IMG/VR virus record: IMGVR_UViG_3300021082_000060 | Coordinates: 1-41,629 of that record | Strand: one strand, 5' to 3' | DNA length: 41,629 bases | Origin: a virus | Taxonomy: Duplodnaviria > Caudoviricetes | Shown here: positions 1 to 40,101 of the stretch, piece after piece | Layout of the letters: every line of letters starts with the position of its first letter | Numbering within the stretch: position 1 is the first letter of the stretch | Notes under the pieces: generated by a model | The model's input: the letters and a program-made list of their open reading frames with translations, nothing else | Told to the model about the DNA's origin: nothing | Database searches by the model: none | Translations under genes and position numbers: made by a program

Positions 1-137
1 GGCACGTTGGACCGGAAGGCGGCTACCGATTAGAGGGCCGTCTCGGCCCCGTTCCCGACAGCCTGCGGCTTGAGGGTATCGACGACGGCCCAGACAAGGT
101 CGGGTAAGGCCGAAGCCCCACCCGTCCAAGCCTGCCC
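1..137. repeat. Terminal direct repeat (copy 1); assembly overlap of a circular or circularly permuted genome
   Basis: 1-137 is identical to 41492-41629 except GACCGG here vs GACCCGG at the end. Confidence 0.93.
98..127 (-). terminator. cUUCGg-capped hairpin closing the pentamer-array transcript
   Basis: Minus strand GGGUGGGGC-UUCG-GCCUUACCC. The G-U pairs and the UUCG tetraloop only work on the minus strand. It lies just after the last array unit. Confidence 0.7.
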
Positions 138-754
138 CGTCAGGACTCGCCCTGGCGCGCCAGGACTAGCCGTGCCACGTCATGCCTGCCCCGCCTCGCC
201 TGCCATGCCTCGCCTCGTCCGGCCATGCCAAGCCCGGCCAAGCCACGCCGGGCCACGCCTGCCTCGCCATGCCCAGCCGGGCCGCGCCGGTCCATGCCTC
301 GTCTTGCCTGCCAAGCCAAGCCGTGCCTCGACAGGCCGTGCCCGGCCCCGTCCTGCCACGCCTTGCCTGCCCCGCCATGCCATGCCGCGCCATGCCGAGC
401 CAACCCCTGCCACGCCTGCCCTGCCCGGCCTTGCCCCACCTCGCCAGAACTGGCCCCGCCCAGCCCCGCCGCGCCTGCCCAGCCTTGCCGTGACGCGCCT
501 ATCCGGACCAAGCCCAGCCCCGCCTCGCCTGCCGTGCCGCGCCCAGGCTGCCCCCGCCCCGCCGCGCCGTGCCTAACCGGGCCACGCCTGCCCTGCCCTG
601 CCTTGCCGCGCCGAGCCCAACCGTGCCGGGCCAAGCCGGGCCTGCCATGCCAGGTCTGGCCCTGCCCCGTCTCGCCTCGCCGCGCCTCGCCGTGCCTGCC
701 CTGCCAGGCCCTGCCGAGCCCGGCCAAGCCGGGCCCTGCCATGCCAAGCCTGCC
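133..754 (-). ncRNA. Array of putative gapped-code guide RNAs: GGCA followed by 9-11 GGY-NN-type pentamers (VIPR-like vrRNA array)
   Basis: Strict 5-nt period (NNGCC on +) reset by a 4-nt TGCC at 133,187,201,260,309,368,417,476,530,589,643,697,751. There are 11 full units of 49-59 nt and one 2-pentamer unit. The array starts 3 nt after the accessory gene stop. Confidence 0.88.
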
Positions 755-757
755 ATG

Positions 758-1234
758 TCACCGCTTGGGCGGTGTCTTCCCGCCGCCCTTGGGACGCCCA
801 GGCTTGCGCCTGGGGGCGGGCGGCGGCTCCTCCCGTACCTGGGTCACGGCGACCCAGACGCGGTCAAGCTCTTGAAGCTCCTCGTACTTCGCCTGCATTC
901 GCTCCAGTTCGTGCAGCGCGTCCTGCAACAAAACCGTGCGCAGATCAGGCGTGTTCATTACCGATTCGATCCGGCGATACCCGCCACCCTCCACCCGATC
1001 GACCGACAAGCTGACGTATTGCCGCGTGAGGGTCTGGGGATTGACGAAAATCGCCACCAGCTGGCGGACCTGCTGGATGCGGTAGGCCTCGGCTGCAATC
1101 GAGTCGTCCCATTCCAACTCGGCATACAGCGCCGAACTGGGATGCGCGCGCGCCCACTCCACCGCAGCCTTCGGTTGGATCAGGCCGCCGCGCTCCAGCC
1201 GCAACAGCTCGCTGGCGACGTTCTCCTTGTTCAT
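758..1234 (-). CDS. Accessory protein of the RAMP/pentamer-array module (158 aa, MNKENVASELLRLERGG...)
   Basis: ATG at 1234 overlaps the RAMP gene stop (ATGA) and has a GGAG RBS. Contains EWDDSIAAEAYRIQQVRQL and a basic C-terminal tail (PRRKPGRPK). Confidence 0.8.
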   Translation of the reverse strand: MNKENVASELLRLERGGLIQPKAAVEWARAHPSSALYAELEWDDSIAAEAYRIQQVRQLVAIFVNPQTLTRQYVSLSVDRVEGGGYRRIESVMNTPDLRTVLLQDALHELERMQAKYEELQELDRVWVAVTQVREEPPPAPRRKPGRPKGGGKTPPKR

Positions 1235-4978: not shown

Positions 4979-5395
4979 ATGGGCGAAACTGTTCCCGATG
5001 CGCGTGCTAGCACTTCAGTTGCCCGTAGGCCGGGTCAGTTGTGGCAAAAAGGCCAGAGCGGAAACCCGAAGGGCAGGCCTCGCTCGCCCTACGATCTGCC
5101 TGCGCTCTGTCGTGAGCACACTGCTGAGGCCGTCAGGCGGCTGGTGCAGATCATGCGTGCCGAGGACGACGGGCGCGCTCTGGCAGCCATCCAGCAGCTG
5201 CTGGATCGTGGTTGGGGTCGACCAATTACCCCGATCGTCGACGAGACCGAGGGGACCAGTTTGACGTTGTTGCATTTGATTGCGGCGCGGCGTGTTGCCG
5301 AAACGTTGCAAGCCGTGGCGGAGGGGAAAACCGAGAACGAATCGGGCGACTCCTCCAAGCCTGTGGTCGATTATAGTGTTCCTGCCCTGGAATAG
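4979..5395 (+). CDS. terS: Terminase small subunit-like protein (DUF5681-type)
   Basis: WQKGQSGNPKGRP and LLDRGWGRP motifs typical of this TerS-like family. Confidence 0.7.
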   Translation: MGETVPDARASTSVARRPGQLWQKGQSGNPKGRPRSPYDLPALCREHTAEAVRRLVQIMRAEDDGRALAAIQQLLDRGWGRPITPIVDETEGTSLTLLHLIAARRVAETLQAVAEGKTENESGDSSKPVVDYSVPALE

Positions 5396-5396
5396 T

Positions 5397-5510
5397 CGTT
5401 AGAACAAACGCGGCGTGGCACGACGGGGCCTGTCCCGTACAGGCCCGGCCGGGCTCGTCAGGGCAGGGCAGGCATGACATGGCACAGGGGCGGCATCCTG
5501 CCGCCGCCCC
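5397..5510 (+). ncRNA. Solitary GGY-NN guide unit 1
   Basis: Leader CGTTAGAACAAACGC, 11 pentamers at 5412-5466, GGCA at 5467-5470, 3 more pentamers, then a GGGGCGGC/GCCGCCCC hairpin at 5487-5510. Confidence 0.8.
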
Positions 5511-6636: not shown

Positions 6637-6734
6637 TGGCAGCGGCAGCCCGGCTGCTGCTGCTATTAGCCTTCTACCTGGGCGCGCTCTGGTTTGGCGG
6701 CTACGTGTTCTGGCTGGCAGGGGCCATCAGGTGA
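6633..6734 (+). CDS. Tiny membrane peptide (33 aa)
   Basis: ATGA coupling; LLLLLAFYLGALWFGGYVFWLAG. Confidence 0.5.
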   Translation: MMAAAARLLLLLAFYLGALWFGGYVFWLAGAIR

Positions 6735-6753
6735 TCACACAGGGAGACGCCCC

Positions 6754-7074
6754 GTGAGATGTTGTAGATACTGTCTGACCCCTGCCGCCTACGGTGGAGA
6801 CGACCGCATCGAGGAGCTAGAGGCAGCGCTGACCCGCATCATCGAATGGGCTGACGCATATCCGTTCGCCGTGTTTCCAGAGGTGGACGAGGACTACGCC
6901 AAGCGGGCGCACACGGCGCTCACTGAGCACGGCATGACGCTGGACCGGCTGTCTGCCGACGTGATGCGGCATGTGCTGACCGGCGTGCGCCGCATCGCCA
7001 GCGGCGCCTTGCACACACAGGGAGACGCCGCTGCGCCATCAGGTGATGCACCAGCCCCACGCCGGATGCCATGA
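6754..7074 (+). CDS. Hypothetical protein (...IEELEAALTRIIEWADAYP...)
   Basis: GGGAG RBS and GTG at 6754; plausible phage-type protein sequence. Confidence 0.55.
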   Translation: MRCCRYCLTPAAYGGDDRIEELEAALTRIIEWADAYPFAVFPEVDEDYAKRAHTALTEHGMTLDRLSADVMRHVLTGVRRIASGALHTQGDAAAPSGDAPAPRRMP

Positions 7075-10274: not shown

Positions 10275-12824
10275 ATGACGCTGCACCTGCAACCTGATAT
10301 ACTGGCGCCAGATACGAGCGATTCACCACCACCTGCGGGCGGCGCGTCCCCCAACGACAAGCCGCCCGACTTTTCCGCCTTCGACTTCGCCCTCCAGCGC
10401 TACAATCGCGCCCCCATAGCCTTCGTGAAGGAGGTCCTCCTTCAGGAGCCCGACGCGTGGCAGATCGAGGCGCTCAGGGGCTTCGCCCGCGGCTTCACCC
10501 GGCACAGCATCAAAAGTGGTCACGGTGTCGGCAAAGCACTTACGTTATCGGAACTAGTTCCAACGCCGGATGGGCAGAGACGATGGGGTGATCTGCAACC
10601 CGGTGACCGGCTGTTTGGCCGTGATGGCGAGCCGACGCACATCGTAGCGCGCCATGACCAGGGCGTGCGGCCAATCTACCGGGTGACGTTCGATGACGGC
10701 ACGAGCTGCCGCGTTGACGGCGAGCATCTGTGGACCGTGCGCGGTCGCGCGCAGCGGCGGACTGATCGGGCTGGCGGAAAGACCGGCGACTTCATCACCC
10801 TCACTACCGCCGAGATCCTTCGCCGTGGGGTAAAGCGAGCCAACGGTGCAACGCTGGCGCGTCAGTGGGAGCTACCACCCCATGGCCCAGCGCAGTATCC
10901 GGCGCAGCATGTGTCGCTCGCGCCTTATCTGCTCGGGTTCTATCTGGGCGACGGCATGCTGAACAAATCTGGGGTGCAGTTCAGCGGCAGTGAGGCAAAG
11001 ACCCAGGCTCTTATCGAGACATGTGCCGCGCTCGGTATCAGCCACAGCACGCCTCATGGTGATGGAGATCGATGGGTAGTCCGGCTTCGCGGCATAAGCG
11101 CAACGCTCAACGAACTTGGGTTGGGCGGCAAGTTGTCAGGCTCGAAGTTCGTCCCGCTGATCTACAAGGAGAACACTCCAGCCGTCCGTCTCGCCGTGCT
11201 GCAAGGCCTGATGGACACTGACGGTTACTGCGACGCTCGCGGTATCGCTGTTTACACCAGCGTCTCGCAACAACTAGCCGAGGATGTCGCATGGCTGGTG
11301 CGATCGCTCGGCGGCAAGGCTCACATGGGCGCCGCGCAGCGAAGCCACTACCGCGACTCTGACGGTGCGCTGGTGCGCGTGCAGGACCACTACGACGTGA
11401 CAGTGCGCCTGCCACCGGACATGCCGCTGTTTACCCTGCCGCACAAAGCCAACCGCGTGCAGCCCTGTGAGCCGCGCTACCTGGCGCGGTGGATCGAGGC
11501 GATTGAGATGGACGGTGAAGAGGAGGCGATGTGCGTTACAGTTGACGCGCCGGATGGCCTCTATCTCGCGAATGACTTCATCGTCACGCACAACTCATGC
11601 TTGGCTGCCTGGGTGGTGCTGTGGTTCATCTGCACCCGCGCACCGTTCAAGTGTGCGCTGACCGCGCCATCGGCGCCGCAGCTGTTCGACGTCTTATGGC
11701 CCGAGCTCCTCAAGTGGATGGGCCGCATGCCCGAGCAGTGGCAGGCGCTGTGGGACGTGACCACAGACCACATCACCCTCAAATCGGACAAGGAGTGCTT
11801 CGTCACCGCCAGGACATCGAGGCCTGAAACGCCCGAGGCGATGGCAGGATTGCACTCTCGCAACATCCTGCTGGTGGCAGACGAGGCATCCGGCATCGAC
11901 GAGAAGGTCTACGAGGCTGCCAGCGGCTCAATGAGTAGTTCCGGAGCCATTACGTTACTCATTGGCAATCCGACACGAGACTCTGGGTTCTTCTGGCGCA
12001 CGCACACGCTGGAGCGCGATCGCTGGCGCTGCATGACCGTGTCCAGTGCCGAGAGCACGCGTGTCGACCCGAGCTACATCACCGAGATGTCCGAGCGCTA
12101 CGGCAGCGAGAGCAACGCGTTCAGGGTTCGGGTGCTGGGCCAGTTCCCGTCCGGCTCCGACGACGTGTTCATCCCCGGCGAACTGGTCGACAGCGCGATG
12201 AACCGCGACATGGCCCTCGATGTCGGCGCACCGATCATCTGGGGAATCGACGTCGCCAGGTTTGGTGCCGATGCTTCCGTGCTGATCAAGCGCCAGGGCA
12301 GTTGCGTGACCGAGCCACCGCGGCGCTGGCGCAACGTGGACCTCATGGTGCTCGCAGGCGCCATCAAGCACGAATACGATCTGGCCAACACCGCGCGCCC
12401 CATGCTGATCGTGGTGGATTCGATCGGCATCGGCGCTGGCGTGGTCGATCGCCTCCAAGAGCAGGCGCTGCCGGTGCTGGGTGTGAACGTCGCCGAGTCG
12501 CCGGCCAACCAGACCAACTACATGCGCCTTAGGGACGAGCTCTGGGGAAGAACACGGGAATGGCTGGCGACACGCACCGTGCGTTTGCCCCGCGACGACC
12601 TGCTCCGCGCCGATCTTGTGGCGCCGAAATACACGTTCAGCTCTACGGGCAAGCTGACTATCGAGAGCAAAGAGAGTATGCGGCGTAGAGGACTGCCCAG
12701 TCCCGACAGCGCCGATGCGTTAATGTTAACGCTCGCGCAACAAGGGCTGATGGTAACGTCAGCGAACCAGAGTTGGTTATATGATACGCAGCCGGTGATT
12801 AGCAGCATTCCCGGCATGGAGTGA
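10275..12824 (+). CDS. terL: Terminase large subunit containing an intein
   Basis: Walker A SGHGVGK|S, Walker B LLVADEASG, GNP coupling motif, nuclease WGIDVARFGAD and SPDSADAL. Confidence 0.95.
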   Translation: MTLHLQPDILAPDTSDSPPPAGGASPNDKPPDFSAFDFALQRYNRAPIAFVKEVLLQEPDAWQIEALRGFARGFTRHSIKSGHGVGKALTLSELVPTPDGQRRWGDLQPGDRLFGRDGEPTHIVARHDQGVRPIYRVTFDDGTSCRVDGEHLWTVRGRAQRRTDRAGGKTGDFITLTTAEILRRGVKRANGATLARQWELPPHGPAQYPAQHVSLAPYLLGFYLGDGMLNKSGVQFSGSEAKTQALIETCAALGISHSTPHGDGDRWVVRLRGISATLNELGLGGKLSGSKFVPLIYKENTPAVRLAVLQGLMDTDGYCDARGIAVYTSVSQQLAEDVAWLVRSLGGKAHMGAAQRSHYRDSDGALVRVQDHYDVTVRLPPDMPLFTLPHKANRVQPCEPRYLARWIEAIEMDGEEEAMCVTVDAPDGLYLANDFIVTHNSCLAAWVVLWFICTRAPFKCALTAPSAPQLFDVLWPELLKWMGRMPEQWQALWDVTTDHITLKSDKECFVTARTSRPETPEAMAGLHSRNILLVADEASGIDEKVYEAASGSMSSSGAITLLIGNPTRDSGFFWRTHTLERDRWRCMTVSSAESTRVDPSYITEMSERYGSESNAFRVRVLGQFPSGSDDVFIPGELVDSAMNRDMALDVGAPIIWGIDVARFGADASVLIKRQGSCVTEPPRRWRNVDLMVLAGAIKHEYDLANTARPMLIVVDSIGIGAGVVDRLQEQALPVLGVNVAESPANQTNYMRLRDELWGRTREWLATRTVRLPRDDLLRADLVAPKYTFSSTGKLTIESKESMRRRGLPSPDSADALMLTLAQQGLMVTSANQSWLYDTQPVISSIPGME
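10536..11594 (+). mobile_element. Class 3 (Ala1) intein with LAGLIDADG homing endonuclease, 353 aa
   Basis: Starts ALTLSELVPTPDG; block B EHLWTV; LAGLIDADG-like LLGFYLGDG and LQGLMDTDG; block F AMCVTV; ends IVTHN/S. Confidence 0.9.
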
Positions 12825-17110: not shown

Positions 17111-18193
17111 ATGTCTGAAACAACCGGGCCGGCCCCGCCAGCCGCGCCCACTGCCGACACCAGCAGCAGCGACTTTGCGCCCGCACCAGACACCCGGCCA
17201 GAGCTTAGTGTCAGCGACGCGGCGAGGATGCTGCGGAACGCCAGGCGCGCCCAGCCAGCGCCGCAGCAAGGGCTACCCAACGTGGAGCAGCCTGCCGGCT
17301 TCGGGCACAATTCCGGCGAGGCGGCGCCGCAACCACCGCAAACACCAGCCCAACCCGGTGGCATGTCTGCGCTGGAACGCGCCTTAGGGCTCCAGCCCGA
17401 CTCTGACAATCCTGACGTCCCACATGAAACACCCGGCAGTACGCCTGCCCAAATCCCGGCAGAGATCGAACTGGAGGGCCGGCGCTACACGCAGGCCGAG
17501 TTGGCTGCCGCAGTGCGTCAGGCGCAGGACTACACCCAGAAGACCCAGCAGCTATCCGCCCAGGCACGCCAGCTACAGGCGCAGCAGCAGGCCCTGGCAG
17601 CCGCCCTGCCGCTGATCCAGCCCGAGATTGAGGCGCTGCAACGCCGGCTTGCCGAGGCGCCGCGCCCCGACCCGCAGCTACGCCAGACCGATCCGGCGGC
17701 GTATTGGGACCAGCTGGCGACTTGGCAGGACGCGCAGATCGAGCACCAGCGCGTCTTGGCGATCCAGACGCACCAAGCCCAGGCCCGCGAGGCAGCGGTC
17801 GCCCAGGCTGTCGATCAGGCGAACCACGAACTAGCCCAGAAGTATCCGTTCTGGTCGGACCCGCAGCAAAGGCGGGAGATCCAGCAGGATATCATCAGCT
17901 GGGCCAGAACGCAGGGCTACACCGATCAGGAACTGCACGGCCTGACCTCGGCAAAATATCTTGAAACACTTTTCAAGGCCTCGCTCTATGACCGCTACCA
18001 GGCCCGCATTAAGCCCCAGGCGACGCAGCCTGCTGTGGGGCATGCGCCGCGCGGCACCGCCCCCCCGCCGCCGCCTGCCGCGCGGGTCAGGGAGGCGACC
18101 GAGACGTTCGAGCAGCGGCCCACCGTGGCCAACGCTGCCGCTTTGATCGGTGCCCGGCGGGCACCACGCGGCAATGGACACACCCAATGGTAG
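17111..18193 (+). CDS. Capsid scaffolding protein
   Basis: Disordered N-terminus, DYTQKTQQL motif and coiled coils; upstream of the major capsid gene. Confidence 0.8.
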   Translation: MSETTGPAPPAAPTADTSSSDFAPAPDTRPELSVSDAARMLRNARRAQPAPQQGLPNVEQPAGFGHNSGEAAPQPPQTPAQPGGMSALERALGLQPDSDNPDVPHETPGSTPAQIPAEIELEGRRYTQAELAAAVRQAQDYTQKTQQLSAQARQLQAQQQALAAALPLIQPEIEALQRRLAEAPRPDPQLRQTDPAAYWDQLATWQDAQIEHQRVLAIQTHQAQAREAAVAQAVDQANHELAQKYPFWSDPQQRREIQQDIISWARTQGYTDQELHGLTSAKYLETLFKASLYDRYQARIKPQATQPAVGHAPRGTAPPPPPAARVREATETFEQRPTVANAAALIGARRAPRGNGHTQW

Positions 18194-18228
18194 CCTGTCA
18201 CACTGGCAACATTCCTGGGGGAACGCAC

Positions 18229-18939
18229 ATGAGACACGTATTGCTTGCCGCCACAGCGATCGCCGCTCTTGCCTTCGTGCCGTCAGCCAATGCGACACTG
18301 CAACTGAGCATCGGCGCCAATGGCTCGACCTTCACCTGTGCGGACGGTCAGTTGGGCTGTGACCTGTCAGGCGGCGCCAACAACTTGCTGACGGTCAACA
18401 CGTTGGTGGGCGGCGCCTTCGTGCAGATCACCCTCGTGCAGAGCGTCGCCGGGACGGTCAATTCGCTCCAGATGTCGTCCAGCAACATCGAGAACCAGAG
18501 CGACGCACCGATCGTCGTCACCCTGCTGGCGAGCCAGACGGACTTCCTCGGGCCGGTCTCCGCGATCAGCAACAGTGGCTCGCTCACGTTCAACAACAAC
18601 GTGGGCGCGACCGACAGCACGCTGAAGTTCTGGGCGGACGCGGCGAACGTGCAGGGCGCCAACCCGACCAACACGCCTGGCACCTTGCTGGAGACCGTGA
18701 CGGGAGCCGCGACCACTAACCCGGACTCTTTCGCTGGCAGCAATGTCGCGCTGTTCGCCGCGGGCGGGCCGTTCTCCATGACCGAAGGCGCGGCGCTGGC
18801 GCTGATCACGGGCGGCTCGATCACCGGCTTCAATCAGTCGATGGTGACCACGGCTGCCGTGCCCGAACCGGCCTCCCTGGGTATCCTTGGCCTCGGCATG
18901 CTGGGCCTCGGCATGGTGCAGTATCGCCGCCGCAGCTAG
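18229..18939 (+). CDS. PEP-CTERM sorting-domain exported protein
   Basis: Signal peptide MRHVLLAATAIAALAFVPSANA; Ser/Thr/Asn-rich body; C-terminal VPEPASLGILGLGMLGLGMVQYRRRS. Confidence 0.9.
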   Translation: MRHVLLAATAIAALAFVPSANATLQLSIGANGSTFTCADGQLGCDLSGGANNLLTVNTLVGGAFVQITLVQSVAGTVNSLQMSSSNIENQSDAPIVVTLLASQTDFLGPVSAISNSGSLTFNNNVGATDSTLKFWADAANVQGANPTNTPGTLLETVTGAATTNPDSFAGSNVALFAAGGPFSMTEGAALALITGGSITGFNQSMVTTAAVPEPASLGILGLGMLGLGMVQYRRRS

Positions 18940-18946
18940 ACGGCAC

Positions 18947-19047
18947 GGGGACTGGATTGCCCCAGTCCCCACCTTGCCTGCCGAGCCACGACGGGCCCTG
19001 CCCCGCCCTGTCATGCCACGCCTAGCCACGCCGTCTTTGTTTTAGCG
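18947..19047 (-). ncRNA. Solitary GGY-NN guide unit 2
   Basis: Leader CGCTAAAACAAAGAC, 10 pentamers at 19032-18983, GGCA at 18982-18979, 2 more pentamers, then a GGGGACTGG/CCAGTCCCC hairpin at 18947-18970. Confidence 0.8.
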
Positions 19048-19270
19048 TGAGCTTGCAGGAAACGCACCAACCGTCTTAGTATTTACATCGACGGCGATGG
19101 CAGTGCTCGCACCCAGCGGCGCCGTGACGTGCCGGCATCGAGGCTGATGCCGTTCTGAGGACCACCGACCGGGAGTGCTTGCACCCACTCGGCACGGCCT
19201 CCGCAGGACCAGTCGCTCCAGATGCAGAACCCGCCCCGCAAGGGGCTTGTCCTGTTCTAGGAGCGAATCC

Positions 19271-20257
19271 ATGGCCTCACCGCCAACGATGGCGTCCGCG
19301 CCGGCTAACACCTACACCCAGCAGCTTGCATCCGGCACGGTCCACGAAGACGTCAGCGACGTTATTTATAGAATCGACCCGGAGGAGACCCCGTTCGTCT
19401 CGGCGCTGCCGCAGGTCGGCTCAAAGCAGATTTTGACCGAGTGGCTCACCCAGACCCTGAATAGCGCCGCAGACGTGCCGCAGCCCGAGGGCTTCACGGC
19501 GGTGATCAGCCCGTCTGTGAAACCAGTCCGCATGTCGAATGTCTGTCAGATCTTCGCACGCACGGTCGGGGTGTCGGGAACACTCAGAGTGGTGGATTCG
19601 ATCGGCGGTGAAGATGAGTACAACCGCCAGCTTGTGATGCGGGGCATCGAGCTCAAGCGCGACGTGGAATTGGTCTCCACCTCCAACATTCCCAAGGCGG
19701 CGACCGACCCGCGGCACATGGCCGGCATGCCGACGTTCTGCACCAACGGCAGTGTCGGCGCTGGCGGCACCATGCCGGTCGGCGACGGTAGCGCCGCGGC
19801 AGTGCCGGGCACGGCTAGGGACCTGACACTCACGATCGTCAACGACGCCATGCAGCAGGCGTGGAACCAGGGCGGCAAGCCGACCATCGGGCTCATGTCT
19901 GGTAACATTAAAAACTACTTCAGCACCCTGTCACAGGGCGGCACCGGCAATCCGATCGTGTCGCAGAATATCCAGTCCACGACTGCATCCCAGGAAGTTA
20001 CCATCATGGGCGCGGTGGACGTTTACCGCACCAATTTCGGCACGCTCGATCTGGCGCCTGACAGGTTCATGCCACCCAACATGATGCTGCTGATCACCCG
20101 CGATTACGTGGAATTGGCGCCGCTGCCAGAAAGAAATATGGTGGAACAGGCGTACGCCAAAACGGGCGACAATACGCAGGGCGGCATCGTCTTTGAGGGC
20201 ACGATCCGCGTCACTGCACCCAAGGCGCATGCCGCAATCTTCGGGTTGAACCAGTAG
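19271..20257 (+). CDS. Major capsid protein (DUF5309/SU10-like)
   Basis: EDVSDVIYRIDPEETPF, N.CQIF.RTV.VSGT, ELKRDVE and Y.TNFGT motifs; AGGAG RBS. Confidence 0.9.
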   Translation: MASPPTMASAPANTYTQQLASGTVHEDVSDVIYRIDPEETPFVSALPQVGSKQILTEWLTQTLNSAADVPQPEGFTAVISPSVKPVRMSNVCQIFARTVGVSGTLRVVDSIGGEDEYNRQLVMRGIELKRDVELVSTSNIPKAATDPRHMAGMPTFCTNGSVGAGGTMPVGDGSAAAVPGTARDLTLTIVNDAMQQAWNQGGKPTIGLMSGNIKNYFSTLSQGGTGNPIVSQNIQSTTASQEVTIMGAVDVYRTNFGTLDLAPDRFMPPNMMLLITRDYVELAPLPERNMVEQAYAKTGDNTQGGIVFEGTIRVTAPKAHAAIFGLNQ

Positions 20258-20260
20258 CCC

Positions 20261-20572
20261 ATGCCCACGCTCTATGAACGCTACGACCCGGTCACCACGC
20301 GTTACACCGAGATCGTCACCGACTCGGAGACTGGGCTGCCGATCATTACTTTTACTCAGGATACCAAGCCGATCGTCGAGGCATGCAAGCGGGCGGCCAG
20401 CAACTTCACCGGCACCAGCAAGACCGGCTTCACCCGCGTGGCCAGCATTCCAAACGTGGTGGTGCAGCGGCTGATGCAGACCGGCATCTGGTACGACGAG
20501 AAGGCGATGAACGTGTGGCTGAACCAGCGGGACAACAGAGTGTTCAGGACGGACGACGGACGACGTCTCTAG
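20261..20572 (+). CDS. Conserved post-capsid virion-region protein
   Basis: TQDTKPIVE, VASIP and WLN..DN..FRT pattern; directly after the capsid gene. Confidence 0.75.
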   Translation: MPTLYERYDPVTTRYTEIVTDSETGLPIITFTQDTKPIVEACKRAASNFTGTSKTGFTRVASIPNVVVQRLMQTGIWYDEKAMNVWLNQRDNRVFRTDDGRRL

Positions 20573-32013: not shown

Positions 32014-33146
32014 GCGGTGGCGGCGGCAGCGGGTCATCAACCAACACAGTTCAGAACACCAACGCGTATATACCACCGTGGCTGGAGGGCTATTCAAAGG
32101 ACGCGGTAGACCGCGCCAACGCGCTATCCCTGAATGCGTATCAACCGTACGGTGGCCAGACCGTTGCGGGCATGGATCCGGCGCAGCAGCAGGCCTACAA
32201 CCAGGTCGCGGGCATGCAGGGCCTGGGGACCGGCGCCGCGGCCACCGGCATCAATGCTCAGGCAAATCTTGCCGGGCAGGTCTCGCCACTCACGGCTGGC
32301 GGCATCAACGCCAACGCCAACCAGTTGCAGCAAGGCTTCATGGGCCAGGTCTACGGACCGTCGCAGGGCTTGCTCGGCAACTATGCATCGCAGGGTCCGG
32401 CGACGGCGCAGGGCGTGGCGGCTGGCGCCAACCAACTGATGTCGCCCTACACCCAGTCGGTGGTCGACCCGGCGAACCAGCTGATGCAGCAGCAGTTGCG
32501 CAGCAACCTCAACGCGATCGGTGCCGGGGCGAATCAGGCGGGTGCGTTCGGTGGCAGCAGGCAGGGCGTGCAAGAGGGCATCGCGCAATCACAGGCGGCG
32601 CTAGGGTCGGAGAAGTATCTCGGCGACCTGCTCAACAACCAGTGGAATCAGGCCACCGGCATCAGTCGGGACGTGGCGTTGCAGGCCGGGCAGCAGGGTC
32701 TCGCCTCCAATACCGCGCTGGCCAACCTGCTACAGGGTGGCTACGGGGCCAACCAGAGGCTCGGCGCCGACATCATGTCGTCCAACCTCAGCCAGGGCCT
32801 CGGCGCGGCGCAGAACCTGCCGCAAAGCCTGACGTCGCTGCAGAACATGATGCTGGGCCAGTCCAATGCGCTGAACCAGGCTGGCACGCTGCAGCAGCAG
32901 TATCAGCAGCAGTTGCTGAATGCGCAGCAGGGAGCTTTCGCACAGCAACAGGCATTCCCGTATCAGCAGTTGCAGACGTTGCTCGGCGCGGTGTCGGGCA
33001 TCCCCTACAGCACATCCAATACGGGCTTCGCGCAGGAGATGAACCCGTACTATTCGAACCCGATAGGACAAGGCATCGGAGGGGCGGCGACAGTCTTAGG
33101 GTTGGGCGGCGAGCTTATCGACCAGATAAACGCGGGGGGCGCGTAG
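32010..33146 (+). CDS. DNA ejection/pilot (internal virion) protein
   Basis: YQPYGGQTVAG, MSPYTQSVVD, AGAFGGSRQG; Gln/Gly-rich. Confidence 0.75.
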   Translation: MSGGGGSGSSTNTVQNTNAYIPPWLEGYSKDAVDRANALSLNAYQPYGGQTVAGMDPAQQQAYNQVAGMQGLGTGAAATGINAQANLAGQVSPLTAGGINANANQLQQGFMGQVYGPSQGLLGNYASQGPATAQGVAAGANQLMSPYTQSVVDPANQLMQQQLRSNLNAIGAGANQAGAFGGSRQGVQEGIAQSQAALGSEKYLGDLLNNQWNQATGISRDVALQAGQQGLASNTALANLLQGGYGANQRLGADIMSSNLSQGLGAAQNLPQSLTSLQNMMLGQSNALNQAGTLQQQYQQQLLNAQQGAFAQQQAFPYQQLQTLLGAVSGIPYSTSNTGFAQEMNPYYSNPIGQGIGGAATVLGLGGELIDQINAGGA

Positions 33147-33899
33147 ATGGCAGACGCTGGCGTAGGCGAGGCGGCTCTGATCGCTGCGGTGGCTCCGGAG
33201 GTGATCGGCGGCACTGTAGCGGCAGGGACCACGGCAGCGACGACGGCGGCGGCGCTGGCGGCGATGGCACCGGAGGCGATCGGTGCAGCTGGGGCACTCG
33301 CTGGGACAGCCGCTGTGGCGCCGGAGATAGCGGCGGCTGCGGTGCCCACGCTCGGGTTAGCGATACCCACGACGGCAGCCGAGGCGGCGGCGACGCTTGC
33401 GCCCACGGTGGCGACCGAGGCACCGATCTCGCTGTTTTCCACCCAAAGCCAGCCGGTCACTGGCGGGCTGCTGGGCCAGGCCGCGCAGGGCGGCACGGTT
33501 ACGGATGCGTCGTTGCTGGGGCCTGCCGCGGCCCCGGAAGGCGTCCCAACCGTCACGCCGAGTGGTGTCCAGGTCGGCACCGAGGCGTTCGGGCCGAAGG
33601 AGGTGCCTGGCCTGCTCGATAAGGCGGCGACGTGGTGGGACAAGGCGACGCTGGGCGAGAAGCTGAAGGCGGGCGGCACATTGCTGTCTGGTGCCAGTAC
33701 CGCGGCCAAGGCGGCGACGCCCACCGGCACGTCGGCTGGCCCCAAGACCACGATCAAACCGGGCAGCACCGGCAAGCCGATGGGCGGCGAGCAGACGCTG
33801 GCACAGGTGGTCGAGGCGCTGCTGAAACGCCGGGACGCCTACACCGGGGCGCAATACGGCACTCCGGTCGCGTATCGGCCACGCGGGTTGCTGGGGTGA
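33147..33899 (+). CDS. Ala-rich internal virion/ejection protein
   Basis: Hydrophobic Ala/Gly-rich sequence within the ejection cluster. Confidence 0.6.
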   Translation: MADAGVGEAALIAAVAPEVIGGTVAAGTTAATTAAALAAMAPEAIGAAGALAGTAAVAPEIAAAAVPTLGLAIPTTAAEAAATLAPTVATEAPISLFSTQSQPVTGGLLGQAAQGGTVTDASLLGPAAAPEGVPTVTPSGVQVGTEAFGPKEVPGLLDKAATWWDKATLGEKLKAGGTLLSGASTAAKAATPTGTSAGPKTTIKPGSTGKPMGGEQTLAQVVEALLKRRDAYTGAQYGTPVAYRPRGLLG

Positions 33900-39864: not shown

Positions 39865-40101
39865 GTGCGATACGTTTACAAGAGCCCGCGTATGGAGCGC
39901 GAGCGGGACGCGGTGCTAGGGCCTCTGCTGACCCAGCGCGGTATGGTCACGTTCCTGGCGCGTGAATTGGGCATCTCCAAAGCCGCGGTAGCGCAGTGGT
40001 ACAGCATTCCCGACATGCATATCGCGGCGATCAGCAAGCTATTGGACATCCCGCAATACCAACTGCGCCAGCAGCCGCGCCGTCCGAAGGTGGCGGCGTG
40101 A
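39865..40101 (+). CDS. Cro-like HTH regulator
   Basis: AAGGAG RBS before GTG at 39865; FLARELGISKAAVAQWYSIP. Confidence 0.8.
   Translation: MRYVYKSPRMERERDAVLGPLLTQRGMVTFLARELGISKAAVAQWYSIPDMHIAAISKLLDIPQYQLRQQPRRPKVAA

Follow-up and report, generated by a model that had tools for sequence, protein, structure and literature searches.

VIPR systems (Yoon et al., 10.64898/2026.04.26.720920; structures in 10.64898/2026.04.26.720927) are described, in the text examined, as combinations of a Vipr RAMP gene, an accessory gene and a staggered guide array with inter-phage targets. Their guides comprise 9–16 units of GGY triplets and hypervariable NN dinucleotides plus a 3' tail, and the target is read with a 1-nt skip on the wobble base. 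According to the published VIPR work, transcription is repressed by a Vipr filament on the guide, which pairs the NN dinucleotides with the target strand of the DNA; as targets, the text examined names satellites, prophage regulators and VIPR loci other than the own one. Stand-alone guides with a tail, the solo or orphan vrRNAs (Lopez et al., 10.64898/2026.10.15.759431), are loaded in trans. In the accessible part of that report, their carriers are satellites or vipr-null phages, or else vipr is more than 20 kb away, and the guides are directed against REP elements, satellites, vipr or vrRNAs. A further VIPR paper has appeared (10.64898/2026.10.21.760802).

The closest logic is that of the virus-borne mini-CRISPR arrays of the archaeal viruses SPV1 and SPV2 (Medvedeva et al., PMC6858448), where small guide cassettes at fixed intergenic sites have swapped spacers, close relatives are targeted reciprocally, the carrier's own orthologous sites are mutated and targets lie near the array. 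As described in the part of the report consulted, these arrays use CRISPR repeats, contiguous spacers and host Cas proteins, and destroy DNA. Related examples are the free-standing homing endonucleases and marker exclusion of T4 (PMC2988022) and the competition by the intron endonuclease gp210 (10.1101/2023.09.30.560319). In both, as far as these sources were covered, an element beside a conserved gene attacks a relative's allele of that gene by means of a protein nuclease and DNA-break repair.

Here, we describe a solitary guide (solo guide 2) in a phage genome of 41,629 nt, hereafter referred to as the window. The genome has the VIPR traits listed above—effector and accessory gene, staggered array, inter-phage targets, GGY/NN guides (10 units in guide 2) with hypervariable NN and a 3' tail, and the wobble skip—whereas its solo guides are directed against packaging and virion genes of close kin, beside the guide. 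Unlike the VIPR tail, the tail of guide 2 is, by prediction, a plain hairpin. The locus shares with solo vrRNAs the stand-alone guide with a tail, the (here predicted) loading in trans and a self score below the non-self score, reported by Lopez et al. for vrRNA-targeting guides. In contrast, the carriers are vipr-positive phages, the guides sit in the morphogenesis module, and the targets adjoin them. With vipr 17 kb off on the same genome, guide 2 falls outside the solo vrRNAs sensu Lopez et al. as defined in the text consulted. Compared with SPV1/SPV2, the code is GGY/NN and gapped, Vipr is phage-encoded, repression is the likely outcome, and escape needs changes at codon positions 1–2. Assignment as a mini-CRISPR array was rejected, as only pentamer repeats and a gapped match are present and an Rfam search of the window gave no matches. 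In place of the protein nuclease of T4 and gp210, there is an RNA guide and no identified nuclease; a homing endonuclease element was rejected, since neither a nuclease nor a conserved ORF was identified in the cassette of ~160 nt.

The vipr locus and solo guide 2

The window is a circular phage genome with a 126-nt terminal duplication; its genes include those for an SU10-type portal, capsid and adaptor. The vipr gene is located at 1231–1953 on the minus strand. For this ORF, 2050 homologues were found, and the C-terminal glycines are invariant in Vipr homologues. A profile built from 86 sequences matched one PDB sequence only, SUSP1 Vipr (36pp; E 2e-5), and the predicted model (pLDDT 83) matched Csm3/Cas7 folds in Foldseek (E 1e-5). 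Judged from profile and model, this gene is a Vipr RAMP homologue outside a CRISPR context. The likely accessory gene vap (758–1234, minus strand; phrog_15946), assigned by its position and conserved in the kin contig G001, would start at an ATG overlapping the vipr stop codon; it had no clear PDB match. The staggered array of 11 guides (134–750, minus strand) ends in a terminal hairpin at about 90–133. The minimal VIPR locus—vipr, accessory gene and flanking guides—is complete, and G001 has the same layout.

A period-5 scan of the window returned 13 units, i.e., the 11 units of the array and two solitary ones at 5412–5469 (solo guide 1) and 18980–19032 (solo guide 2). For 8/11 array guides, no convincing target was found in the kin and distant loci searched. 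Array guide 644–696 fits vipr of G001 (near 33454) and G003 at 19/20 and the window's own vipr (1514–1543, wobble-aligned) at 16/20; by sequence, it is an anti-vipr guide with the same self deficit as that of the solo guides, and anti-vipr guides are also reported among solo vrRNAs in the part of that work consulted. Array guide 134–186 matches a Cro-like gene of the window (39942–39971), wobble-aligned, at 17/20 (16/20 in G001). In G001, array guide 32357–32419 fits, at 22/24, a DUF5681-like gene of L146, a distant phage; the array units at 32421 and 32475 are partial duplicates, and G003 has a different array content.

Solo guide 2 (minus strand) is composed of 11 GGC-type triplets and 10 NN dinucleotides. 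On the plus strand, GCC-type triplets are separated by GA AC GG CT CC CT AT AC TA AC, starting at 18983, 18988 and so forth up to 19028, in agreement with the letters that a sequence-only reading had listed from 18983 on. Two of the 11 triplets are degenerate; such triplets are equally frequent in the main array. The predicted 3' tail hairpin (18936–18979, minus strand; fold z −4.6, as-stable folds in 0/200 shuffles) opens with the same junction as the last unit of the array, resembles the terminal hairpin of the array (z −5.6) and is kept in kin cassettes with other guides (6/6 kin cassettes). The 5' flank (19033–19093, minus strand), likewise present in 6/6 kin cassettes, is likely the cassette's promoter; a promoter and terminator scan at the cassette was empty, with no sigma-70 site in this flank. 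Adjacent to it, 19094–19270 is a conserved non-coding leader ahead of the capsid gene, which kin with and without the cassette possess and which has no Rfam match.

The sequence-only reading had decoded guide 2 to the post-capsid gene at 18 of 20 nt, in frame, with a code of two bases read and one skipped, and this match was reproduced. The site at 20327–20356 (plus strand) corresponds to codons 23–32 of ORF 20261–20572, encoding ETGLPIITFT; 8/10 dinucleotides agree, the skip is codon position 3, and T is found at several skipped positions. Only a skip of 1 gives a signal, the best scores with skips of 0, 2 and 3 being 13, 14 and 14 of 20. The code is that of the published VIPR systems and, hence, not new. 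The placement of guide 2 as a solitary minus-strand unit, ~17 kb from vipr, held as well. A score of 18 was reached by 0/3000 dinucleotide-order permutations and 0/3000 base shuffles (maximum 17)—in total, 0/6000 in the shuffle control which that reading had named—and analytically 7e-5 sites at this level are expected in the window.

The 18/20 target allele recurs without any difference on contigs from 4/4 other DNA runs compared, X4 being labelled soil and from a different study, while X2, X3 and X5 may be one campaign. Runs X4 and X5 also contain an identical guide 2, on contigs separate from the target allele. RNA runs share at most 0.09 of words, as contigs only, and were not counted as expression evidence. 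By its sequence, the guide 2 unit is a real VIPR member whose expression and function are predicted. It is antisense to the target mRNA and would, therefore, pair with the coding strand.

Kin alleles and solo guides of the clade

The target gene of guide 2 (20261–20572, plus strand; phrog_3982) lies directly after the major capsid gene and encodes a conserved protein of 103 aa, for which a fold search gave no match at E 0.001 or better. Its homologue, phiM5 gene 15, is conserved in LUZ24-like phages and absent from the list of the phiM5 particle proteome. Alleles were compared in a set of 60 close kin contigs with one locus each, from which duplicates, the window's own record and distant loci had been left out. 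In the 26 contigs covering the site, the match to guide 2 is 20/20 in 19, 19/20 in six and 17/20 in one; for the 14 of them found without the guide pattern, the numbers are seven, six and one, all of these counts overstating independence, as the contigs are related and partly clonal. Kin allele L077, at 17/20, scores below the window.

The expectation that a pattern search would retrieve ETGLPLITYT homologues was borne out by 12 exact IMG/VR matches, 12/12 in the homologous gene. L28I and Y31F are the only positions out of 103 at which the window departs from every one of the 12 relatives, and these are exactly the two self mismatches of guide 2; in L005, the rest of the target protein is identical to that of the window. 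The sequence-only reading had considered the two mismatches conservative and had left the cause of the 18/20 score open; the kin data indicate that they represent the carrier's own rare allele, I28 being present in 1/15 and F31 in 0/15 distinct kin alleles. ETGLPLITYT is found in 29/34 close proteins and the I28+F31 double allele in 4/34, so that its designation as a private allele of the window was softened. Two of these four (P0149 and P0152) are on other branches, their contigs' guide content not being visible, and I28 alone is common across the family (15/75 homologues). IMG/VR holds no other record with the window's I28/F31 allele and none with its guide 2; therefore, linkage of guide and allele is seen on one contig only. 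Since most kin match at 20/20 and the self mismatches coincide with a rare allele, guide 2 is probably tuned to the relatives' allele, with kin rather than self as the main target.

In total, the clade contains 12 distinct solo guides at 9 sites, directed against six genes, namely the DUF5681 gene, large terminase, a small pre-portal gene, scaffold, capsid and the post-capsid gene. All 12 are antisense, wobble-skipping and located 76–1295 nt from their target (11 of them within 319 nt). The carrier allele scores below the non-carrier median for 11/12 guides, with a tie for one. While the VIPR text examined reports no self match of 80% or more for the P. fulva clade or for types III and V (10.64898/2026.04.26.720920), 9/12 solo guides reach this level here. 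Self matches were equalled by 0–1 of 500 shuffles for ten guides and are weak for two (50/500 and 8/500 as good). Among the 28 self-mismatch units (11 guides), eight are synonymous Leu/Ser/Arg switches away from the kin consensus, seven are amino-acid changes, and 13 are mismatched in the kin consensus too. No guide-like units were found in 127 distant loci (1.29 Mb).

Solo guide 1 (plus strand; 11 NN) follows its target at a distance of 182 nt on the downstream side; the target is part of the DUF5681 gene, which is likely the small terminase gene. The window's own copy (5198–5230, plus strand) fits at 20/22 as compared with 21/22 in G001, G003 and L040, a small self deficit (20 vs 20–21); there is no exact IMG/VR target for this guide. 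Conversely, the guide which G001 and G003 hold in the same DUF5681 cassette fits the window at 20/22 and its carriers at 17/22. Reciprocal pairs are present at both the DUF5681 and the capsid sites.

At the capsid locus, the tail and 5' flank of the guide 2 cassette are present in 6/27 kin contigs spanning the cassette site. The carriers are scattered on the capsid tree, whose starred branches force at least four changes; a search with the tail pattern returned only the five known carriers. This one cassette contains three different guides (window; G005 group; L078), each with its target 261–1295 nt away. In G005, L003, L007, L068 and L073, the guide is directed at the capsid N-terminal site (19292–19318, plus strand), where the window scores 17/18, the carriers score 16/18 via a Ser codon switch, and 19/27 non-carriers score 18/18. 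The L078 guide matches the capsid site 19349–19381 (plus strand) at 22/22, fitting rare codons of the window's capsid gene, and L078 itself at 19/22. G001 and G002 retain the capsid escape allele without the cassette. Window guide 2 and the capsid-aimed guide of L003, L007 and G005 have three 5' units in common, and their targets end in the same three residues; the L078 guide is without these units. Possibly, these shared units hint at reprogramming by exchange of a guide's 3' part.

The scaffold-gene site of the window (18119–18148, plus strand) fits two kin solo guides at 19/20 and 18/20, the carriers' own sites at 17/20 and 16/20. The scaffold cassette (G001 6640–6900; L012 1880–2170) is inserted at the gene end, where the C-terminus is recoded and AT-richer and the terminal motif duplicated; by analogy, it looks like a guide-plus-rescue insert. 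In L030 and L031 (near 3500 and 6273), the small pre-portal gene appears altered or broken at the target site of the own guide.

C>T changes at skipped bases

In carrier alleles, C>T at skipped positions relative to the kin consensus occurs in 29/47 cases within the footprints of 11 guides as opposed to 11/89 outside; G>A shows no excess in the same comparison (4/33 vs 14/103). With two redundant guides dropped, the remaining nine give 26/41 in footprints vs 37/203 in flanks (nominal P 2e-8). One footprint site is free of C>T, the guide 2 footprint has 3/3 vs 2/38, and non-carrier alleles show C>T at 0–28% of skipped bases. In G005, a C>T patch lies exactly on the L078 footprint, although the present G005 guide differs, and at the same footprint the window has T-ending codons along with rare Ser and Arg codons. 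Such patches suggest that targeting and escape have followed each other over several rounds. In the cryo-EM structures, as described in the accessible text (10.64898/2026.04.26.720927), it is on this affected strand that the skipped base is flipped out. The C>T excess fits deamination while self-binding is partial as well as selection that favours weaker binding.

Probable exclusion of kin and competing explanations

The explanation which we consider probable is that the cassette guide and Vipr shut down the late operon of kin that co-infect or superinfect, the carrier being spared by its linked escape allele. It builds on direct observations: the anatomy and the code, the homology of Vipr, the matches in kin along with the lower score for self, the reprogramming of the cassette, and the proximity and reciprocity of guides and targets. 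The cassette would be transcribed from the minus strand into an RNA of about 100 nt, and its guide would likely be loaded in trans by the phage's own Vipr. Paired with the coding strand, it could act as a roadblock that affects the downstream adaptor and tail genes too, the two mismatches protecting the carrier's own allele. Vipr of G001 and G003 is 96% identical to that of the window; therefore, guides would likely be interchangeable in a shared cell, and it would have to be the DNA that tells self from kin. Where a population recombines and has such a Vipr in common, guide and escape allele would be co-inherited, and guides may be kept beside their targets because this co-inheritance is necessary.

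How far two mismatches protect is less certain, since SUSP1 vrRNA4 matches its satellite targets at, on average, 89% of read bases, as given in the part of the report consulted (10.64898/2026.10.15.759431); therefore, 18/20 may not spare the carrier. Figures on mismatch tolerance were not found in the VIPR text examined. Furthermore, co-infecting phages with near-identical virion proteins could complement each other in trans, blunting the gain from silencing.

A more far-reaching proposal, tentative and rather doubtful, is that solo guides and linked recoded alleles are natural guide-plus-rescue modules which recombination spreads through the phage species in a Red Queen cycle within core virion genes. 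Vipr binding would either scar the skipped base, which is flipped out, with C>T on one strand specifically or, against the published rule, be weakened by T at this base; past guides could then be read from genome footprints.

The same modules might serve themselves only. In mixed infections, recombination would spread the guide together with its linked resistant allele at the sister allele's expense, much as with a free-standing homing endonuclease, and the phage as a whole would have no net gain. We regard this as unlikely; in part, it is compatible with the exclusion of kin. The tight linkage of guide and target (12/12), the scatter of the cassette on the capsid tree, and the recoded gene end and duplicated downstream motif accompanying the scaffold cassette are consistent with it, as is the cutting by T4 free-standing endonucleases hundreds to thousands of bp from their own gene, according to the part of the source consulted (PMC2988022). 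However, no nuclease was identified in the locus, the published non-nuclease VIPR, in the text examined, represses and does not cut, and the capsid escape allele persists in G001 and G002 without the cassette.

Regulation of the own late genes, dampened or timed by an imperfectly matched guide, is improbable. Carriers fit worse than kin in 11/12 cases, at one site the guide is not conserved but exchanged from lineage to lineage, and the L078 guide fits the window's rare codons better than its own gene; on the other hand, the nine solo guides that match self at 80% or more always do so nearby, and the carriers' C>T excess could record real self-binding. That guide 2 is a relic, formerly active and now silent with a drifted target, appears very improbable: its register is intact, tail hairpin and conserved flank are present, and changes are concentrated in the footprint. 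The empty promoter scan would suit a relic, as would the two degenerate triplets, yet degenerate triplets are no rarer in the main array. A chance match or an assembly error is refuted by the expectation, the shuffles, the perfect kin matches and the recurrence of the allele in four other runs, leaving it practically no probability.

VIPR, solo guides and the lower self scores of vrRNA-targeting guides are already published, as the text consulted shows. The VIPR text examined, whose supplementary tables and Data S3 could list similar targets, mentions neither kin guides adjacent to their targets in vipr-positive phages nor the C>T signature. The word deamination was not found in the two VIPR papers that matched, and reviews of synthetic systems were the only matches when the literature was searched for natural elements in phages that combine a guide with a recoded rescue. 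The deployment of VIPR beside kin targets is, thus, apparently undescribed. If exclusion of kin is correct, VIPR would serve not only in defence against satellites and prophages but also in self/non-self discrimination between close kin with nearly the same effector, and co-inheritance with the escape allele gives a reason for the proximity of guide and target, left unexplained for the archaeal mini-CRISPRs in the accessible part of that report (PMC6858448). The clade offers sensitive and resistant targets in natural matched pairs, on which the mismatch tolerance of VIPR could be measured. Guide reprogramming can be tested with the cassette, as it occurs with three guides, one of which is tuned to an apparent escape allele. 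Whether the skipped base is ignored is a question on which the C>T excess bears directly and which is of importance for VIPR as a tool.

Several minor features concern the genome as a whole. No integrase was found among the 34 ORFs scanned in the window. From GTDB, five distant homologues of the capsid were obtained, and a MAG contained one kin fragment of 3.4 kb, which was not accepted as host evidence. The large terminase gene (10275–12824) has an insertion with a LAGLIDADG domain, missing from kin alignments at about 10535–11598 and likely an intein. Within the head module, a gene for a PEP-CTERM surface protein is located at 18187–18939, possibly a sign that the gene is expressed in a host that persists.
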